From: Eubacteriales bacterium
GTDB lineage: Bacteria; Bacillota; Clostridia; Oscillospirales; CAG-272
Assembly (NCBI GenBank): GCA_045580835.1
Contig: JAZNOM010000030.1
Span: forward strand, 17,162 to 81,161
Direction of reading: 5' to 3'
DNA: 64,000 bases
Position 1 is the first letter of the stretch; the number at the start of each line of letters is the position of its first letter. The notes beneath the pieces are model-generated. The model made no database searches. It saw nothing but the letters and a program-made list of their open reading frames with translations, and was not told the DNA's origin. Made by a program: the position numbers and the translations under genes. Below, one piece after another: positions 1,844-51,015 of the stretch.

Positions 1844-2716
1844 ATGGAAAACGAAGTTTTTTTTGATGAAAATAAAAATAAAACCAACGACGGAACTCTG
1901 TACCTCGTAACAACTCCTATTGGGAATTTAAGCGATATTACATATCGTGCGGTAAAGGTACTTCGCGAAGTCAGCTTCATTGCTGCCGAGGATACTCGAA
2001 ATACAAAGAAATTGTTAAGATATTTCGACATTTCTAAAGAGGTTGTCAGCTATTATGAGCATAACAAAGTCAGCAGTGGCAATGAGATTGTCTCAAGGCT
2101 TCTGTCGGGCGAATCCTGCGCTCTTGTGACCGATGCCGGCACACCTGCCATTAGCGACCCCGGAGAAGATTTAGTGCGTCTATGCGCTGAAAATAATGTT
2201 CCTGTAACGGCAGCACCCGGCGTCAGTGCCGCAATCACTGCGCTAACTCTGTCTGCGCTTGATACGCGTAAGTTTGTTTTTGAAGGCTTTTTGCCCGTTC
2301 AAAAAAGCGAGCGTAAGGAGCGTCTGGATTATATCAAGAGTGAAACCAGAACTTTGATTCTGTATGAGGCACCGCACAAACTTTGCAAAACACTTAATGA
2401 TTTGTATGCCACCTTGGGAGAACGCAAGATTTCTCTTTGCCGCGAACTTACAAAGCTCAATGAAGAAGTAATGCGCACTTCCCTTTCTGCCGCTATCAAG
2501 CACTATGAAACTAATGAGCCGAGAGGCGAATATGTTTTAATAATTGAAGGTTGTTTCGATAGTGTTATTCGAAATAATTTTTGGAATAACATGACTATAT
2601 CTGAACATGTAGATTATTACATTTCGAGCGGCATGGTAAAAAATGATGCAATAAAAGCCGCAGCAAAAGACCGTGGCGTACCCAAAAATGTTGTTTACAA
2701 TGAATATGTAAAATAA
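1844..2716 (+). CDS. rsmI: 16S rRNA (cytidine1402-2'-O)-methyltransferase
   Basis: GTLYLVTTPIGNL...AEDTR...DAGTPAISDPG motifs typical of RsmI/YabC. Start taken at ATG 1844 (MENEVFF). Confidence 0.9.
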   Translation: MENEVFFDENKNKTNDGTLYLVTTPIGNLSDITYRAVKVLREVSFIAAEDTRNTKKLLRYFDISKEVVSYYEHNKVSSGNEIVSRLLSGESCALVTDAGTPAISDPGEDLVRLCAENNVPVTAAPGVSAAITALTLSALDTRKFVFEGFLPVQKSERKERLDYIKSETRTLILYEAPHKLCKTLNDLYATLGERKISLCRELTKLNEEVMRTSLSAAIKHYETNEPRGEYVLIIEGCFDSVIRNNFWNNMTISEHVDYYISSGMVKNDAIKAAAKDRGVPKNVVYNEYVK

Positions 2717-21473: not shown

Positions 21474-21548
21474 GCCTGCATAGTTAAATGGATATAATAA
21501 CCCCCTCCTAAGGGGTAGTTACAGGTTCGATTCCTGTTGCGGGTGCCA
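21474..21548 (+). tRNA. tRNA-Arg (anticodon CCU)
   Basis: Manual cloverleaf. Acceptor GCCTGCA/TGCGGGT (two G-U pairs). D arm GTTA-AATGGATA-TAAT with GG. Anticodon arm ACCCC-CTCCTAA-GGGGT (U33, CCT, A37). 4 nt variable loop. T arm ACAGG-TTCGATT-CCTGT. Discriminator G followed by encoded CCA. Confidence 0.7.
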
Positions 21549-35460: not shown

Positions 35461-35564
35461 AAAAAAGGCAAATCAGCTTTTAATAACTGATTTGCCCAGA
35501 CGGTCGGCGTATAACCTTTACATTCCCCCGCGGTAATCCGCGAAATCCGTCAGTCATGTAAAAG
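35461..35564 (-). promoter_or_regulatory. ZTP (pfl-motif) riboswitch with terminator expression platform
   Basis: Minus strand: P1 tttacat/atgtaaa; conserved GACTGACGGA; P2 cgcgg-atta-ccgcg; 3' subdomain CCGACCGTCTGGGCA (ACGG/CCGT pseudoknot). The terminator ggcaaatcag-N10-ctgatttgcc-TTTTTT shares GGCA with the aptamer. Confidence 0.85.
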
Positions 35565-35575
35565 CTTGTACTTAA

Positions 35576-44961: not shown

Positions 44962-46050
44962 ATGACAAAAATTGATATTATATCCGGATTTCTCGGTGCC
45001 GGAAAAACTACACTAATCAAAAAACTTCTTCGGGAAGCTCTTGTCGGCGAAAAGGTTGTTCTTATTGAAAACGAGTTTGGTGAAATCGGTATCGACGGCG
45101 GCTTCCTTAAAGACAGTGGCATTGAGATCACCGAAATGAACTCCGGTTGTATCTGCTGCAGCCTTGTAGGTGACTTTGAAAAATCTCTCTCTGAGGTGCT
45201 TGATAAATTCACTCCAGACCGTGTTATTATTGAACCTTCAGGCGTTGGCAAACTCAGTGATATTATCAGTGCTGTTGAGAAGCTTGATAGAAAAGACATT
45301 TCTCTCAACAGCTTTTCTACCGTTGTTGATGCAAAGAAATGCAAGATGTATCTCAAGAACTTCGGTGAATTCTTCTGCAATCAGGTAGAAAATGCGCGTG
45401 CTATAATACTCAGCCGTTCACAAGACGCAAACGAGGGAAAACTTGCAGAAACCATTGAACTTATCCGCGGACTTAATAGCGAAGCAAACATTATCACGAC
45501 ACCTTGGGACTCACTTAACGGAAAACAGATTCTCCATGCTATGGAAACTGCAAAGATACTTTCAAAAGAACTTGAAGAAGAACACCGCAAAGCACATCAC
45601 CTCCACGGTGAAGAGTGCCATTGTCACGAGCAGGAGCATCACCATCACGACCATGATGAAGAATGTCACTGTCATGAACATCACCAGCATGGCGAAGAAT
45701 GTCACTGTCATGAACATCATCAGCATGGCGAAGAATGTCACTGCCATGAGCACGGACATCATCACCATCACGACGCCGACGAAGTGTTTACTTCTGTTGG
45801 ATTTGAAACCATCAAAAAATATACTGTTGATGAAATTAAAGATATTCTTAAAGCACTCGAAGATGAGCACACCTATGGTATTATTCTGCGTTCCAAGGGT
45901 ATTGTAGCGGCGACTGATGGTTGGATTCACTTTGACTATGTCCCTGAAGAATCCGATGTTCGCACGGGCGGTGCTGACACTATCGGCAAAATCTGCGTAA
46001 TCGGCTCAAATATCAACGAAGAAAAAATCAAGGAATTGTTTAGAGTATAA
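44962..46050 (+). CDS. COG0523 (CobW/YjiA/ZigA-type) metallochaperone GTPase with His/Cys-rich repeat insert
   Basis: Walker A GFLGAGKTT, ENEFGE, metal motif GCICC, a long (GEECHCHEHHQH)n stretch, and a CobW_C-like end. Confidence 0.85.
   Translation: MTKIDIISGFLGAGKTTLIKKLLREALVGEKVVLIENEFGEIGIDGGFLKDSGIEITEMNSGCICCSLVGDFEKSLSEVLDKFTPDRVIIEPSGVGKLSDIISAVEKLDRKDISLNSFSTVVDAKKCKMYLKNFGEFFCNQVENARAIILSRSQDANEGKLAETIELIRGLNSEANIITTPWDSLNGKQILHAMETAKILSKELEEEHRKAHHLHGEECHCHEQEHHHHDHDEECHCHEHHQHGEECHCHEHHQHGEECHCHEHGHHHHHDADEVFTSVGFETIKKYTVDEIKDILKALEDEHTYGIILRSKGIVAATDGWIHFDYVPEESDVRTGGADTIGKICVIGSNINEEKIKELFRV
45607..45773 (+). repeat. in-frame 36 bp tandem repeat encoding GEECHCHEHHQH units
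   Basis: Units 45658-45693 and 45694-45729 differ at 1 nt. Diverged copies flank them on both sides. Confidence 0.9.
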
Positions 46051-47003
46051 TGAGAACAGAACAAGAAGTAAGAGTATATTTGTTTACCGGCTTTTTGGAG
46101 TCCGGCAAGACAAAATTCATCAGAGAAACTTTAGAGGATAAGCGCTTTAATGACGGTGAGCCGACCCTGCTGCTTCTTTGCGAAGAAGGCGAAGAGGAAT
46201 ATGATACAAAGGCCCCGTATATGGAGTGCGTAACGGTTGCAACGCTTGAAGATGAATCCGAGTTTACCGAGGCCAATCTCATGCGTCTTGCAACAAAGGC
46301 AAAAGCCAAAAAGGTAATCGTTGAATACAACGGAATGTGGCTTCTCAATGATTTTTATGAAAGAATCCCAAGCGATTGGGTTATATATCAGGAGCTTATG
46401 TTTGCAGATGCAAACACTTTTGAAAACTATAACTCAAACATGCGTAGCCTTGTATATGATAAAATCAGCAGTGCCGAGCTTGTAATTTTCAACCGTTGCA
46501 AAAAAGATTTTGACAAGATGGCACTTCACAAAATTGTACGCGCAATCAGTCGCCGTGTTGACATTGCCTATGAATATACCGACGGCTCCGCTGAATATGA
46601 TGACATCGTAGATCCGCTGCCTTTCGATATCAATGCTGATATTATTAAAATTGAAGACCGTGACTATGCACTTTGGTATCGTGACACTTCTGAAGAAATG
46701 GAAAAATACGACGGCAAAAGCGTTTCTTTCAAAGCACTTGTCGCTATTGGTAAGGATTTTCCAACTGATACCTTTGTTGGTGGCAGAAGACTTATGAGCT
46801 GTTGTGCAGATGACCTTATCTTTGCAGGTTTTGCTTGCAAAACTGATAAGCGCGGCGACCTTAAAAACGGCGACTGGGTAAATATTGTTGGAAAAATCGA
46901 AATTAGATTCAACAATCTCTATGGCAGAAAAGGTCCTGTTATCCATGTTACTGAATTAAAAAAGACTACCGCACCGGATGAACCCGTTGCTACATTCTAT
47001 TGA
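46050..47003 (+). CDS. COG0523-like degenerate GTPase domain fused to DUF1980-like C-terminal domain
   Basis: N-terminal TGFLESGKTKF P-loop, but no CxCC and CEEGEEE in place of ENEFGE. The C-terminal RRLMSCCADDLIFAGF...PVIHV...P resembles the DUF1980/TIGR03943 CCxxD domain. Its ATG overlaps the upstream stop (ATAATG). Confidence 0.55.
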   Translation: MRTEQEVRVYLFTGFLESGKTKFIRETLEDKRFNDGEPTLLLLCEEGEEEYDTKAPYMECVTVATLEDESEFTEANLMRLATKAKAKKVIVEYNGMWLLNDFYERIPSDWVIYQELMFADANTFENYNSNMRSLVYDKISSAELVIFNRCKKDFDKMALHKIVRAISRRVDIAYEYTDGSAEYDDIVDPLPFDINADIIKIEDRDYALWYRDTSEEMEKYDGKSVSFKALVAIGKDFPTDTFVGGRRLMSCCADDLIFAGFACKTDKRGDLKNGDWVNIVGKIEIRFNNLYGRKGPVIHVTELKKTTAPDEPVATFY

Positions 47004-47006
47004 TGA

Positions 47007-47040
47007 AAAAGCCACTCAAAAGAGTGGCTTTTAAATTTTT
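47007..47040. terminator. bidirectional terminator
   Basis: aaagccactc-aaaa-gagtggcttt. Confidence 0.75.
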
Positions 47041-47681
47041 TTAAGAAGTTTAGCAAGAGTAGAAACGCTGTCAACTATGTAATTAGCATTCGCGCGCGCA
47101 AGTTCTTCACGTGTACCGTAACCAAAAAGCACACCAACACACTCCAAACCACAGTTGCGCGCACCTATAACATCATGCTCTCTATCGCCTACCATAATAC
47201 AAGTTGAAGGCTCATTTATTCCAAGCGTATCCATAACATATTTAATCACAGCTGCTTTTGTAGAAAGTTTTTCTCCCAAGTCACAGCCGCCAATATATTC
47301 AAAATACTTTGCAAGATTAAAATGCTCTAGTATTCTCCTTGCATACACTTCCGGTTTAGATGTTGCAAGCACAAGTTTGTATCCACTGCTCCGCAAATCT
47401 GCAAGCATTTCAGGAATGCCGTCGTAAACAAGGTTTTCAAAAAGACCTTTATCACTAAAATACTCCCGGTAGTACATTAAACATTTTGTTGCCTTTTCTT
47501 TCGAAAAGCCGTATACCTCCATCATTTTTTCAATAAGCGGAGGACCGATAAACTGATATAGTTCTTCCCTGCTTGCCACCTCAATCCCAAATTTTTCGAG
47601 TGCATATATAAGCGAATTGGTAATACCTAAAGCAGGGTCGGTTAATGTACCGTCAAGATCAAAAAATATGTACTCCTTCAT
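47031..47681 (-). CDS. HAD-IA family phosphatase (phosphoglycolate phosphatase-like)
   Basis: FFDLDGTLTD motif I, TSK motif and GDREHD motif. Start at MKEY, whose ATG overlaps the upstream TGA (TGATG). Confidence 0.8.
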   Translation of the reverse strand: MKEYIFFDLDGTLTDPALGITNSLIYALEKFGIEVASREELYQFIGPPLIEKMMEVYGFSKEKATKCLMYYREYFSDKGLFENLVYDGIPEMLADLRSSGYKLVLATSKPEVYARRILEHFNLAKYFEYIGGCDLGEKLSTKAAVIKYVMDTLGINEPSTCIMVGDREHDVIGARNCGLECVGVLFGYGTREELARANANYIVDSVSTLAKLLKKI

Positions 47682-48172
47682 CAATACTTCCACAGCTTCT
47701 TTCGATCAACAAATTCTTTTAAAATAATTGCGCACACTATGCCTGCTATTCCTTGCAGAAAATTAGGTACAATACCGAGTGCTGCTGTACCGGGGGTATA
47801 TAAAACGCATTCATATGCGAAATAGCCAAATACCATCAAAAACTCGGCAAGCACACCGCTGATTATAACTGCTATTCTTCCTTTACCGGCTGCGACAAAA
47901 TATGCAACCACCGCCATCAATGCCTTTATAATAAAAGTTACCGGGGCGTAAATTACATAAGTTGCAAAAACGTCCGCCAACATCGAGCCTACGCCGGCAG
48001 CAATTGCACCGTATATGGGGCCGAGAAGCCAGCCGCATAAAAGCACAATACAATCGCCGAGATTAAAATAACCACCAATTCCATTAGGAATTTGGATAAT
48101 CATTGTAGCAACACAGGCAAATGAGGCGAGCAGTGCCGCTATAACAAGTTTTCTTACATCAATTCTTTTCAT
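47681..48172 (-). CDS. ECF transporter S (substrate-binding) component, substrate unknown
   Basis: 163 aa with ~5-6 TM helices. The pattern GDCIVLLCGWLLGPIYGAIAAGVGSMLAD is typical of S components. Confidence 0.6.
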   Translation of the reverse strand: MKRIDVRKLVIAALLASFACVATMIIQIPNGIGGYFNLGDCIVLLCGWLLGPIYGAIAAGVGSMLADVFATYVIYAPVTFIIKALMAVVAYFVAAGKGRIAVIISGVLAEFLMVFGYFAYECVLYTPGTAALGIVPNFLQGIAGIVCAIILKEFVDRKKLWKY

Positions 48173-49817
48173 AATACTCTCCCAAAAGCTCTATAAATTC
48201 CAGCGGGTATTCCCCACGATTGTTCTTTTTTTCATAATCTGCGTAGACAGCGCAATTACTGTGATATAGAATCGCGATATTTCGTCTGACCCCTGTTTTT
48301 TCAGCAGTCGCAACATCATTATTCAATCGTTTCTTAATCTCCGGAATGCGAGCATCAGTTCTATATAGTGCTTTAGGCAATCCTTTTGATGAGTTAGTTG
48401 CAAGTCTATCACAAACAAGCGCGTCGCGTATCTCATCGGTCAAATTTGCAAATCTTGCAGTTAGAAACAGAAATAACGCATTTGTCATTTCATCTAAAGC
48501 ACTTATATCTTTTATAACAGCTCCGCATTCAAAAAAGAAATCATACGCACTGTCAAAATACGGCAAGCAAAACTTGATAGTTCTTCTAAAACGACCACTG
48601 TTATGAAGACGGTCAACTGCGCTTTCTGCCGTTTTTAATTTCAAAAAATCCTCTCTTGTAAGCCAAGACGTTTCGCAAACCTCATATGGAGGTTCGTGAG
48701 AATACTTAAAGCCATATTCTACTGCTTTATCTTCAAGCTCAGTTCCGTGCAAAATCTTAAGAAAACCAAGTTGAAGCATGTTTGCTCCAAGCTCATACGC
48801 TTCATTAAAGCTATTTATAAAACTATTGTAATCCTCATAGGGCAAACCGGCTATCAAATCAGTGTGTATATGAGCATTACCCATAGCAACTAGCTGCTTT
48901 ATACGAAGTTTTAAAGTTTCGTTATCGGTTTTACGATGAATGGCGGCAATAGTATGCGGATAGAAGCTCTGTATTCCTATTTCAAATTGAAAAAGCCCGT
49001 TTGGAGCGGAACTTAATAGCAAAATCGTATCATCATCAAGCAAATCGCCCGACAGTTCAAAATGAAAGCAAACATCACTCGGGAAAGCTCTCCCTGAATA
49101 CTCTATTAAAAAATTAAATAGTTCATATGCACGATGTCTGTCCGCGTTAAATGTTCTGTCTACAAATTTAATTGTTTTTGTGCCGCTATTTGCAAGCTTT
49201 ATGAGGTTTTCTTTAACATATTCCATATCAAAGAACCTAACACCGTCACACCTGCCTGACAAACAATAAGCGCAGGAATAAGGACATCCGCGACTGCTCT
49301 CAAAATACGCAATTCTATTGTTTAGCATTGCAAAATACTCATTGGTATAAGGAGATTTTGGTGTGCCGATGCCTATGTATGGCTTTGATATATTACCACG
49401 CCAAGATATACCTGAAAGCTCAGCGTTGACACCTGAAAGTAAGAACTGACAAATATTAGAAAATGGGACCTCTCCTTCTCCGCAAATAACATAGTCAACA
49501 AAACTATTTTCAAGTACCTTCTCGGAATTATATGATACTTCAGGACCGCCAAGTATAACTTTAATTTCCTGATTAAATAACTTTACCTGTTTTACTAATT
49601 CATATACATGCTTAACATTCCAAATATAAACGCTTATTGCTAAAACTTTAGGATTAAAGCTTATAATGTCGCTACAGATGTAATCTAAACTTTCATTGAT
49701 CGTGTGTTCCAAAACAACAGAAGAAAAATCTAAATCTTCTATTGAACTCTTCAAATACCAAGTAGCAAGAGAAGAATGAATATATTTACTGTTAAGTGCC
49801 AATATTACTACATCCAT
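48159..49817 (-). CDS. B12-binding-domain radical SAM protein (DUF4080-type)
   Basis: N-terminal Rossmann-like B12-binding region, CxxxCxxC (GCPYSCAYC) and a long C-terminal extension. Confidence 0.75.
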   Translation of the reverse strand: MDVVILALNSKYIHSSLATWYLKSSIEDLDFSSVVLEHTINESLDYICSDIISFNPKVLAISVYIWNVKHVYELVKQVKLFNQEIKVILGGPEVSYNSEKVLENSFVDYVICGEGEVPFSNICQFLLSGVNAELSGISWRGNISKPYIGIGTPKSPYTNEYFAMLNNRIAYFESSRGCPYSCAYCLSGRCDGVRFFDMEYVKENLIKLANSGTKTIKFVDRTFNADRHRAYELFNFLIEYSGRAFPSDVCFHFELSGDLLDDDTILLLSSAPNGLFQFEIGIQSFYPHTIAAIHRKTDNETLKLRIKQLVAMGNAHIHTDLIAGLPYEDYNSFINSFNEAYELGANMLQLGFLKILHGTELEDKAVEYGFKYSHEPPYEVCETSWLTREDFLKLKTAESAVDRLHNSGRFRRTIKFCLPYFDSAYDFFFECGAVIKDISALDEMTNALFLFLTARFANLTDEIRDALVCDRLATNSSKGLPKALYRTDARIPEIKKRLNNDVATAEKTGVRRNIAILYHSNCAVYADYEKKNNRGEYPLEFIELLGEYYEKN

Positions 49818-49868
49818 TTTCTCACCGCCTTTTTAATAAATATAACACAGACAATTTACAAAATCAAT

Positions 49869-49922
49869 ACAAAAAAGAAATGACCTCTGATTGCTTTTTC
49901 TACCGCAATCAGAGGTCATTTC
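49869..49922 (-). terminator. strong intrinsic terminator on minus strand, 52 nt upstream of radical SAM start codon
   Basis: Perfect 18 bp stem gaaatgacctctgattgc / gcaatcagaggtcatttc, 10 nt loop, then TTTTTTG on the minus strand. Confidence 0.85.
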
Positions 49923-50245
49923 GCTTCACTCTTGATATCTAACATCTTTTCTTATCCTCGCTTTCTTAAGATGCCTTTTGCTACATTTAAAAATTCAAAT
50001 GTTTTTTTCTTTCGCTTTTGCGAAACTACTACAGATTTGTACACCGTTCAATGTGCAAAAGGTTAAGATTTTGCTTTAATTAAAACTCAATCCGGATTTA
50101 AACTTTTTTCAAACTCCTGCTACTTTAACTCCCTCGGCATATACAACACTCACACCACTACACCTTTTTAAAGTTCAAATCCAATTTTGTTTTAATTGAA
50201 AGTTATAGGACTTACTTGTACATCGGACTGTACCTTCCTTTCTTC
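49869..50245 (-). ncRNA. candidate ~375 nt structured non-coding RNA (family not recognised)
   Basis: Promoter at 50252-50280. Hairpin 1 spans 50074-50202 (13 bp + 13 bp nested helices, including one G-U that would be C-A on the other strand). Hairpin 2 spans 49964-50068 (5+8+6 bp). The terminator follows. No ORF above ~30 codons and no RBS-preceded start on either strand. Confidence 0.45.
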
Positions 50246-50251
50246 ACTTAT

Positions 50252-50280
50252 AGTGTAGCATACCTAAAATCCAAATGCAA
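50252..50280 (-). promoter_or_regulatory. putative sigma-A promoter for the minus-strand RNA
   Basis: Minus strand TTGCAT, 17 nt spacer, TGc-TACACT. Confidence 0.45.
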
Positions 50281-50365
50281 TTGACATTTTAGAAAAAATT
50301 TCTATACCGTTTTTGTTAAAATGGGAGAAATAATTAAAAAGGTATTTTCAAGCTACATGTTTTTA

Positions 50366-50374
50366 TGATATAAT
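50366..50374 (+). promoter_or_regulatory. extended -10 element for thiamine pyrophosphokinase gene
   Basis: TGaTATAAT, 33 nt upstream of the ATG. Confidence 0.5.
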
Positions 50375-50406
50375 AAATATGTTGTGATGATTTAAAGAGG
50401 TAATTT

Positions 50407-51015
50407 ATGAAAAATGCTTTGATAATTACCGGAGGATATATTAATTTTAACGCAATTGATTTATCCGCCAAAAATTTTAGCACAATAATCGCTGCCGACA
50501 GCGGTTATTTATCAGCTGAAAAACTAGGAATTGCTCCGTCTATTATCGTTGGCGACTTTGATTCTGCTTCTGTTCCAAGTTCAAATGCAGAAATAATTAC
50601 GGCTCCAAAAGAAAAAGATGAAACTGACACCATGCTTGCTTGCAACATCGCAATCGAACGTGGCGCAACGGAGTTGCTTATTTTGGGCGGTACAGGCGGA
50701 CGTGCGGACCATTTTCTTGCAAACGTTTTTTTGCTTGAAGCCCTAAAAGATAAAGGAATATCCGTTACTCTTACTGATGGTGACAATGCCATCAGGATTC
50801 TGAATAACGAAGAAACGCAAATTCCTAACAATTCCAGTTATTTTTCAGTTTTTGCTCTTGATTTTTGTTCGATTTCTCTTAAAGGTTGCAAATATCCGCT
50901 TGAAAACTACAAACTAACGCGAAAAAATCCTTTTGCGGTCAGCAATGAAGTGATTGGTAGTCACGCAACAATTTCTGTAATCGGAAAAGTAATTCTTTGC
51001 GAAAGTAAAAAATAA
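50407..51015 (+). CDS. thiN: thiamine diphosphokinase
   Basis: IIAADSG...IVGDFDS...KDETD...GGTGGRADH motifs of the TPK family. Confidence 0.85.
   Translation: MKNALIITGGYINFNAIDLSAKNFSTIIAADSGYLSAEKLGIAPSIIVGDFDSASVPSSNAEIITAPKEKDETDTMLACNIAIERGATELLILGGTGGRADHFLANVFLLEALKDKGISVTLTDGDNAIRILNNEETQIPNNSSYFSVFALDFCSISLKGCKYPLENYKLTRKNPFAVSNEVIGSHATISVIGKVILCESKK

Follow-up and report, generated by a model that had tools for sequence, protein, structure and literature searches.

What does a long intergenic stretch encode when it holds no recognisable protein gene? The question is raised by positions 49818–50406 of the window analysed here, a 64,000-nt stretch of contig JAZNOM010000030.1 from a Eubacteriales bacterium. 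These 589 bp (30% GC) separate two divergent genes, and an earlier note on this DNA had described them as free of any open reading frame (ORF) of 60 or more amino acids and as carrying a promoter, two hairpins and a terminator on the minus strand. The gap indeed lacks such an ORF, the longest ones that touch it being 30–49 amino acids and without support, and all of the listed features were found at, or a few bases from, the coordinates given. The note had left two alternatives, an independent RNA of about 375 nt or a cis-regulatory leader (attenuator) of the adjoining operon; the sequence evidence supports the first and lends no support to the second. The gap is very probably, by its sequence features, an independent gene for an RNA of about 377 nt. 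As to what this gene makes, we lean towards a single-copy, purine-rich RNA that is a micro-mRNA or dual-function small RNA and not an operon leader.

Transcription unit and neighbouring genes

The comparison set comprised 20 sequences, the window and 19 related loci. One route to these loci was through relatives of the neighbouring radical-SAM protein (59–73% identity), a selection free of RNA bias. It gave nine loci with the same gene order and an aligning intergenic region of 566–643 bp (L001, L010, L011/L012, L013–L016, L033) and three syntenic loci (L017, L020, L032) in which the intergenic region is only about 139–218 bp and does not contain the element. The other route was an exact-pattern scan of metagenome contigs with part of the second micro-ORF described below, GATATCAAGAGTGANNNNAAATGACC, which gave ten further loci from genomes of very different GC content. 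BLAST of PLSDB found an independent, more divergent copy in the cultured Vescimonas fastidiosa MM35 (Oscillospiraceae), on pMM35_01 (NZ_AP023416.1, about 65.0–65.5 kb); this copy, L035:2808–3095, has a predicted transcript of about 290 nt. The predicted RNA family is seen in uncultured gut and rumen Clostridia (Eubacteriales/Oscillospiraceae-like) and in cultured V. fastidiosa. The element is single-copy, with one per locus and no second copy in the window by self-BLAST or nhmmer. The transcription unit and its boundaries are as follows.

50407, plus strand: start of the thiamin pyrophosphokinase gene, which flanks the gap
50345–50374, plus strand: divergent promoter of the thiamin pyrophosphokinase gene, TTTTCA-18-TG-TATAAT, conserved in relatives; sets the 5' boundary of the RNA gene
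50275–50300, minus strand: upstream box abutting and including the −35, TTTTTTCTAAAATGTCAATTGCAT, nearly invariant in eight syntenic loci
50252–50260, minus strand: extended −10, TGcTACACT; predicted transcription start about 50247–50244
49871–50247, minus strand: predicted RNA of about 377 nt, 61% purine and 11% C
49871–49922, minus strand: intrinsic terminator, an 18-bp stem (49922–49905 / 49894–49877) with a 10-nt loop and U6 (49876–49871)
49839–49867, minus strand: separate promoter of the radical-SAM/ECF-S/HAD operon, TTGATT-17-TGtTATATT; sets the 3' boundary of the RNA gene
49817, minus strand: start of the operon encoding a B12-binding radical-SAM/DUF4080 protein, an ECF S-component and a HAD hydrolase

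The promoter proposed earlier, TTGCAT (50280–50275), 17 nt and TGcTACACT (50260–50252) on the minus strand, is present in the sequence and would be of the sigma-A type with an extended −10. A simple promoter scanner listed it for relatives and missed it in the window, since TTGCAT matches TTGACA at only three of six positions. The same promoter reads TTGAAA-TG-TACACT in relatives (TTGAAA-18-TACACT with TG in L001), its equivalent in L029 is TTGAAA-17-TATAAT with TG (11 of 12 matches), and it is nearly invariant across the eight syntenic loci. In diverse loci the upstream box follows the consensus TTyTnACAAwwTGyCwATTGmAA. A CodY box (AATTTTCWGAAAATT) at the promoter was considered and rejected, its best matches having 3–6 mismatches, mostly 4–5, at inconsistent positions. 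A second conserved DNA box (ATTTCTCC / AATTTCTsCG, then an A/T tract) lies at 50305–50335 on the minus strand, about 70 nt upstream of the −35 of the RNA promoter, with equivalents in all loci, and is a candidate for an UP element or a regulator site.

At the other end of the unit, the terminator claimed for the minus strand proved to have 18 perfect pairs (−31.1 kcal/mol) and a U6 tract that ends at 49871. The plus strand has no T-run after this hairpin, the U-tract being found on the minus strand only. The base of the stem, GAAAUGACC/GGUCAUUUC, is fixed while its top co-varies, with compensatory changes at nine pairs across 18 sequences. With a promoter of its own, a Rho-independent terminator and an intergenic location, the predicted unit has the organisation expected of a small RNA (sRNA) gene; the RNAs of its homologues span 257–680 nt. 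The purine bias and C depletion of the RNA strand, which the earlier note had also missed, go far beyond those of the neighbouring sense strands (49–54% purine, 15–21% C), and homologous RNAs are 57–65% purine. In bacteria with runaway transcription, Rho spares transcripts that are rich in purines and poor in C (PMC13323073), and the composition seen here fits such Rho avoidance in Firmicutes.

Could the unit nevertheless be a leader of the B12-radical-SAM/ECF-S/HAD operon, in which a ribosome on the second micro-ORF (ORF2, below) masks the 5' arm of the terminator and allows read-through? The stop codon of ORF2 does lie in that arm, and in the clade of the window the terminator is followed after 52 nt by the operon, on the same strand. 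The operon has, however, a conserved promoter of its own at 49867–49839, between the terminator and the operon ATG and outside the RNA gene, which the earlier note had missed. This promoter (TTGATT/TTGCTT-17-TGnTATnAT) and the Shine-Dalgarno (SD) sequence of the operon are kept, along with the gene order, in the three loci without the element. The leader reading is unsupported for these two reasons, and the absence of the element from these loci makes it an extra unit between two promoters, one that the operon can do without. In further genomes it precedes convergent or unrelated genes. Its neighbours differ from locus to locus and include DUF6198, SfsA, a metallo-beta-lactamase-fold protein, a SPASM radical-SAM maturase, a glycyl-radical fragment, an ABC-2 permease, an XRE regulator, an ABM monooxygenase, TetR, SpoVAC and EF-G. 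The next gene is convergent in four of the ten metagenomic loci (L021, L023, L029, L030), and in L027 and L028, where it is co-directional, a new promoter follows the RNA terminator. An attenuator would be expected to carry an SD-preceded short ORF, and the RNA has two, conserved in all homologues and predicted to be translated; a downstream gene dependent on read-through, which an attenuator also needs, was not found across the loci compared. In a comparison with shuffled sequences no antiterminator pairing exceeded chance, and ribosomes trail RNA polymerase in Firmicutes (PMC9226507; PMC13323073), which also speaks against control by a masking ribosome. We consider the leader reading very improbable and, as far as sequence can tell, ruled out for practical purposes. 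The "empty" 589-bp gap would accordingly be annotated as a gene, and the label of a riboswitch-like leader is unwarranted for the radical-SAM/ECF/HAD operon.

A further unit was noticed upstream of the RNA gene in relatives. About 150 nt upstream of the RNA start lies a strong divergent promoter (TTGACA-like −35, TGnTATAAT), followed by a conserved GTGTTGTGA-like start and then a GC-rich hairpin with a U-run before the leftward gene (L001:3456–3526 on the minus strand, L035:2600–2700, also L010–L016, L022–L026 and L029). In Vescimonas this unit is present without any leftward gene following. In the window the hairpin has been lost (50375–50406), and therefore the promoter runs straight into the thiamin pyrophosphokinase gene. 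The divergent unit looks like a transcript of about 45–60 nt, or an attenuator, that travels with the RNA gene.

Shine-Dalgarno sites and micro-ORFs

The most conserved parts of the predicted RNA are two ribosome-binding sites, each followed by a micro-ORF (50223–50212 and 49945–49916), neither of which the earlier note had recorded.

50233–50241, minus strand: Shine-Dalgarno 1 (SD1), AAAGGAAGG, about 6–10 nt from the predicted 5' end, invariant in the clade
50212–50223, minus strand: micro-ORF 1 (ORF1), ATG TAC AAG TAA (MYK*)
49955–49967, minus strand: Shine-Dalgarno 2 (SD2), AAGAAAGCGAGGA, family consensus GAAAGAGAGGwwAAC
49916–49945, minus strand: micro-ORF 2 (ORF2), ATG TTA GAT ATC AAG AGT GAA GCG AAA TGA (MLDIKSEAK*), nine codons

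The 5' module reads GUGAAGAAAGGAAGGUACAGUCCGAUGUACAAGUAA, that is, a very strong SD, then CC[A/G]AUG and an ORF of three codons, and starts within about 6 nt of the predicted transcription start. The 3' module reads AAGAAAGAGAGGAUAA..AUG UUA GAU AUC AAG AGU GAA nnn AAA UGA. Predicted pairing with the anti-SD is −13.6 to −13.9 kcal/mol for SD1 and about −12.7 kcal/mol for SD2, while the mean of the 44 long ORFs in the window is −8.3; both sites rank in the top 7–11% of these ORFs. Conservation was calculated over nine element-bearing sequences, the window and eight of the loci found through the neighbouring protein. The 5' module (36 nt) is 95% identical and the 3' module (66 nt) 87.5%, whereas the middle of about 200 nt between them is 37% identical. 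In the adjacent radical-SAM gene nucleotide identity is 66%, and 44% at third codon positions. Both RNA ends, which would be ribosome-loading modules, are under strong purifying selection, and the middle is near-neutral in sequence yet keeps a long hairpin.

The same plan is shared by all eight full-length loci obtained with the pattern. A TTGmAA-17-TGnTAnnnT promoter is followed by an extended SD no more than about 10 nt from the start, then by CC[A/G]AUG with an ORF of 2–4 codons, then by the structured middle and, in the 3' part, by GAAAGAGAGGwwAAC, AUG UUA, an MLDIKSE(Q/E)K ORF and the terminator. ORF1 has 2–4 codons at the same place in 17 of 17 full-length homologues, although its sequence varies (MYK, MYN, MNK, MI, MR, MQM, MRT, MYKV, MT); the MYKV variant of L026 differs by a 3-nt insertion. 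From base composition we estimate the chance of an ORF1 of this length at about 0.2 per independent lineage.

In ORF2 the constraint is on the sequence as well. The MLDIKSE core is nearly invariant at the nucleotide level, the AUG codons of both ORFs are invariant and the SD–AUG spacing is conserved, and SD2 is conserved in all 20 sequences at positions outside the search pattern. Codon 8 is free, with eight amino acids (A, I, P, V, E, G, S, Q) and never a stop. Within codons 2–7 all four changes observed are synonymous (TTA to CTA in L013; GAA to GAG in L014, L024 and L033); as 7 of the 18 possible transitions there are synonymous, all four would be so by chance with a probability of about 0.02. 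The Vescimonas copy, in which ORF1 is AUG ACC UAA, reads (AUG) AUG UUA GAU AUC AAG AGU GAA GGG UAG, so that a 3-nt deletion has made ORF2 exactly one codon shorter. The stop codon of ORF2 (49918–49916 in the window) occupies positions 5–7 of the 5' arm of the terminator; in Vescimonas it has changed from UGA to UAG, the 3' arm compensates from GGUCA to GGCUA, and the in-frame stop is still within the stem. This pattern of substitutions and indels looks like coding constraint and provides the small ORF expected of a dual-function sRNA. We think it fairly probable that both ORFs are translated. The "non-coding" label implied by the earlier note is doubtful, because conservation is highest in the ribosome-binding sites and their micro-ORFs and ORF2 changes in a coding-like manner.

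Several points weigh against this reading. Half of the sequences (10 of 20) were found with a pattern that spans ORF2 codons 3–7 and AAATGACC, so that invariance at these positions is given by construction in those ten, the other positions being informative. The coding case for ORF2 comes from four substitutions, one indel and one stop swap. Even between genomes that differ widely in GC content, hardly any synonymous site of ORF2 has changed, whereas third positions of the neighbouring genes are near saturation; selection for the peptide would not by itself account for this, which implies constraint at the RNA level as well, or instead. Predicted accessibility of the SD sites is moderate (unpaired probabilities 0.54 and 0.62), only moderately above that of the middle domain, and not decisive. 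The predicted product is a hydrophilic peptide of nine amino acids that has no partner gene and no obvious function, and the promoter, the RNA ends and translation are all predictions from sequence.

The frozen synonymous positions would be expected of an untranslated, trans-acting sRNA, a base-pairing regulator or a protein sponge in which the ORFs are incidental and the purine-rich SD+AUG modules serve as seeds, CsrA-like GGA-type sites or mimics of ribosome-binding sites. The unit is transcribed independently, as such an RNA should be, and its most conserved stretch, which comprises about 40 nt and is unchanged at synonymous positions too, directly precedes the terminator, where sRNA seeds often lie. 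The hairpin domain would place the two GGA-containing modules side by side, and a GCGGUGU motif occurs in the apex of hairpin 1 and in some terminator loops. The RNA also has a conserved stretch, predicted to be single-stranded, that is a candidate seed; it is purine-rich, unlike the usually C/U-rich seeds of Gram-positive sRNAs. Incidental ORFs would leave unexplained that both AUGs, the SD–AUG spacing and the in-frame stop are conserved, that ORF1 is constrained in length and free in sequence, and that in Vescimonas the 3-nt indel and the UGA to UAG swap keep the frame. Nor did complementarity reveal a target beyond chance: within the 64-kb window no antisense target exceeded shuffled queries, and the invariant ORF2 core pairs worse than shuffles with Escherichia coli 16S rRNA and reaches z of about −2 at the peptidyl-transferase region of 23S rRNA, which is not significant after scanning. 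We regard an untranslated sRNA as rather unlikely.

Two other identities were rejected. In a type I toxin–antitoxin system one would expect a hydrophobic toxin of at least about 18 amino acids and an antisense RNA; the peptides here are of 2–10 amino acids and hydrophilic, and on inspection the divergent short transcript shows no complementarity to the RNA. A second occurrence of the 14-nt core of ORF2, ATATCAAGAGTGAA, lies at window positions 2331–2344 (plus strand), in the same sense and in frame, within an rsmI-like gene (1799–2716; LDYIKSET). As this peptide segment is not conserved in RsmI relatives, the identity was treated as chance and not as a functional link. The peptide string of ORF2 was not found in the open-access literature.

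Hairpin domain and transcribed strand

Between the two modules lies a structured middle domain that spans 137–560 nt among the full-length pattern loci. In the window it consists of two hairpins.

50074–50202, minus strand: hairpin 1, long and co-varying; 5' strand of the inner helix, GAUUUGAAC, semi-conserved; apex G/U-rich
Within 49964–50068, minus strand: closing helix of hairpin 2, CCUUUUG (50062–50056) / CAAAAGG (49980–49974), the only conserved part of this hairpin

Hairpin 1 folds as the earlier note had described, and the corresponding segment folds into one long hairpin in each relative (z −1.1 to −3.3). MAFFT with RNAalifold gave no consensus structure for it because its arms cannot be aligned by sequence, and for this reason we used an arm-swap test, in which the duplex energy of every 5' arm was calculated against every 3' arm (8 × 8 sequences). 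Cognate arms were best in eight of eight rows and eight of eight columns (mean −25.4 against −14.4 kcal/mol; permutation p = 5e-5). By this sequence test the arms of hairpin 1 co-evolve, and the hairpin is more than chance. Of hairpin 2 (50068–49964) less was confirmed: it is present in the window, and its conservation is limited to the closing helix, the interior with its tttcgc-aaaa-gcgaaa hairpin being deleted in L001 and L013.

Folding alone cannot identify the transcribed strand, since both strands fold well: the minus strand of the 401-nt stretch 50260–49860 folds at −101.6 kcal/mol (z = −5.4) and the plus strand of the same region at −88.7 kcal/mol (z = −7.5). Hairpin 1 by itself is asymmetric, with a mean fold energy of about −29 kcal/mol on the minus strand against about −16 for the reverse complement. 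It is the more stable on the minus strand in eight of eight relatives, and the arm-swap test is weaker on the reverse complement. This asymmetry fits G-U pairs in a minus-strand RNA.

A region of 30% GC whose plus strand also folds well could in principle be AT-rich spacer with chance palindromes, or a dispersed repeat such as a miniature inverted-repeat transposable element (MITE), both of which the earlier note had allowed for. A chance palindrome should show neither conservation nor covariation, and here the hairpin arms co-evolve and nine terminator pairs carry compensatory changes. The modules are 87–95% conserved over a background of 44% at third positions, and homologues occur across genomes of different GC content. 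A dispersed repeat should be multi-copy, and the window and every locus contain just one copy; the unit is also without flanking terminal inverted repeats, and a MITE was rejected. We give spacer or repeat next to no credence.

No known RNA class was recognised either. The earlier note had by eye matched none of the seven signatures that it considered, and Rfam 15 gave no match in the gap at the gathering score; in E-value mode the gap yielded only sub-threshold hairpin matches on the terminator, the best being AniS, whose 30.7 bits fall short of its cut-off of 50. Rfam 15 likewise gave no match in the elements of 17 related loci. The classes without a match comprise riboswitches, T-box, 6S, tmRNA, RNase P, signal recognition particle (SRP) RNA and known sRNAs, as well as the large non-coding RNA families OLE, GOLLD, ROOL and raiA. 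Viral and phage collections contained no copy of the element.

Some motifs of the middle domain are shared by part of the family. A GrUUUGAA (TTTGAA) motif about 30 nt after ORF1 is partially conserved. GCGGUGU occurs near the apex of hairpin 1 in L001, L011, L013–L015, L025, L029 and L035, and again in the terminator loops of L001, L013 and L029; it is not universal, and may serve in protein binding or in a tertiary contact. The longest family member (L030:557–1230, about 680 nt) has an expanded middle with repeated AGAUyCAAG-like units that resemble the AGAUAUCAAG of ORF2.

Candidate mechanisms and genomic setting

If the gene makes a micro-mRNA or dual-function sRNA, as we favour, a ribosome would bind the very strong 5' SD, translate the 2–4 codons of ORF1 and stay parked on the first 40 nt or so. 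There it could protect the 5' end against 5'-exonuclease, in the manner of the strong-SD 5' stabilisers of Bacillus, and could tie the fate of the RNA to initiation and termination capacity, as 3-codon upstream ORFs (uORFs) do in antibiotic-sensing leaders. The hairpin domain would juxtapose both RNA ends. A second ribosome would translate fMLDIKSE-x-K, and reaching the stop codon would require melting of the lower half of the terminator stem. As this stop lies inside the stem, we propose that the RNA can have either a translated ORF2 or an intact protective 3' hairpin, not both at once. What is conserved as output might be the nonapeptide itself or a translation-dependent change in the RNA. 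We put forward this specific stabiliser and sensor logic tentatively, as a possibility. Counting against it, the coupling of ORF2 translation with the 3' hairpin is speculation, and given the lag of ribosomes behind RNA polymerase in Firmicutes, ORF2 translation probably has no effect on termination itself.

A more far-reaching version, which we think unlikely but worth stating, is a "ribosome-bookended" RNA, a widely conserved Oscillospiraceae small RNA that depends on ribosomes held at both ends. Here the minigene of 2–4 codons would hold the 5' end, and the invariant core of seven codons (fMLDIKSE) would drive a ribosome into the terminator. The core would act both as peptide and as mRNA, and could be, for instance, a sequence that causes arrest or serves as a sensor. 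Were this true, the RNA would report or buffer the translation status of the cell rather than regulate a neighbouring gene.

Among the closest relatives in logic are leaders with very short uORFs. The vmlR leader of Bacillus subtilis is a ribosome-stalling sensor with the 3-codon uORF MIN, in which the natural variants MDN, MDK and MRK also work (PMC9226507). The vmlR and Listeria lmo0919 leaders (PMC9226507) share with the gap RNA a strong SD and a very short ORF, of three codons in these leaders, that is kept in length and variable in sequence, as well as hairpins and an intrinsic terminator that follow on the same RNA. They differ in being leaders of a resistance gene, with the uORF inside an anti-antiterminator that adjoins the terminator, whereas the gap RNA has no fixed downstream gene, its terminator is 150–570 nt away and a second, sequence-invariant ORF ends inside that terminator.

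This likeness in length, strong SD and sequence tolerance is what recommends an orphan translation-stress sensor, in which hairpin 1 would be remodelled when ribosomes stall on ORF1, be it through initiation-blocking antibiotics or through a shortage of factors. This would switch ORF2 translation or terminator read-through and have a regulatory outcome, for instance antisense transcription into convergent neighbours such as those at four of the ten metagenomic loci. The stop codon of ORF1 is usually 6–14 nt from the base of hairpin 1, and a ribosome there would therefore touch the helix. A switch of this kind calls for an alternative pairing. One candidate, in which the segment that follows ORF1 sequesters SD2, looked promising in the window and in L001 but was rejected because across 16 sequences it is no better than shuffles (z −1.9 to +0.9); by eye there is a weak AUCAAGAG/CUCUGAU alternative pairing. 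The downstream genes are also heterogeneous, and association with a resistance gene is absent among the loci compared. A stress sensor seems to us distinctly unlikely.

The 5' stabilisers of Bacillus, the STAB-SD of cry3A and hbs (PMC4113751, PMC5737220), have in common with the gap RNA a very strong, extended SD near the 5' end, and in hbs mRNA ribosomes that initiate at the strong SD block RNase J1 (PMC5737220). In Bacillus the gene downstream of such an element is an ordinary protein gene, and STAB-SD works without a start codon, whereas in the gap RNA the SD would drive a conserved mini-ORF of 2–4 codons on an RNA without a long ORF. The dual-function sRNA SR1/SR1P (PMC3526287) resembles it in having its own promoter and terminator, a length of a few hundred nt, a small conserved ORF and conservation at the RNA level.

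Known dual-function sRNAs differ from the gap RNA in encoding peptides of 26–50 amino acids and in having demonstrated base-pairing; here there are two ORFs, one of them of 8–10 codons, and the searches of the window and of rRNA gave no target beyond chance. Besides SR1, RNAIII/hld and SgrS/SgrT are dual-function small RNAs. ORF2 also recalls the drug-sensing leader peptides of cat and cmlA, which have nine codons (MVKTDKISS and MSTSKNADK) and, like ORF2, are rich in Lys, Ser and acidic residues, follow an SD and overlap a regulatory hairpin. The cat and cmlA hairpins sequester the ribosome-binding site of the adjoining resistance gene, whereas the hairpin of the gap RNA is the terminator and no resistance gene follows; by analogy, this likeness is a lead, not a test. 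The bar minigenes of phage lambda (AUG AUA UAA) have, like ORF1, 2–3 codons after an SD; their toxicity shows only under limiting peptidyl-tRNA hydrolase and they are not known to serve a conserved function in the cell, whereas ORF1 is conserved in bacterial chromosomes. The element, which we read as a small RNA or micro-mRNA with regulatory micro-ORFs, shares features of uORF attenuators, 5' stabilisers and dual-function sRNAs, and the family is apparently undescribed. We know of no precedent for a 5' minigene of fixed length and free sequence combined with a frozen ORF of 8–10 codons whose stop is buried in the terminator.

If our reading is right, an undescribed and strongly conserved RNA gene family exists in abundant, little-studied Clostridia of the gut and rumen. 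It would bear on the control that very short ORFs and ribosome occupancy have over the fate of an RNA in Firmicutes, in which transcription and translation are uncoupled, and on whether peptides of fewer than ten amino acids can be genuine gene products. The copy in the cultured V. fastidiosa MM35 makes the question directly testable.

The genes around the gap form a setting of their own. At window positions 47031–51015 the thiamin pyrophosphokinase gene is divergent from the genes for the radical-SAM/DUF4080 protein, the ECF S-component (riboflavin-type by Pfam) and the HAD protein, an order kept in at least 12 loci that suggests a vitamin-salvage module. No thiamin pyrophosphate (TPP), flavin mononucleotide (FMN) or cobalamin riboswitch was detected by the Rfam scan of this module, and an exact-protein look-up of the radical-SAM protein of the window returned no record. 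Convergent with the HAD gene, at 44962–47003 on the plus strand, are two genes related to CobW/G3E-type GTPases (cobW+CobW_C and cobW+DUF1980_C), a pair that also adjoins the operon in relatives. The only Rfam 15 matches elsewhere in the window are a ZMP/ZTP riboswitch aptamer (RF01750) at 35487–35567 on the minus strand, with 63.7 bits against a gathering score of 39, and a tRNA gene (RF00005) at 21474–21545 on the plus strand, with 61.4 bits.

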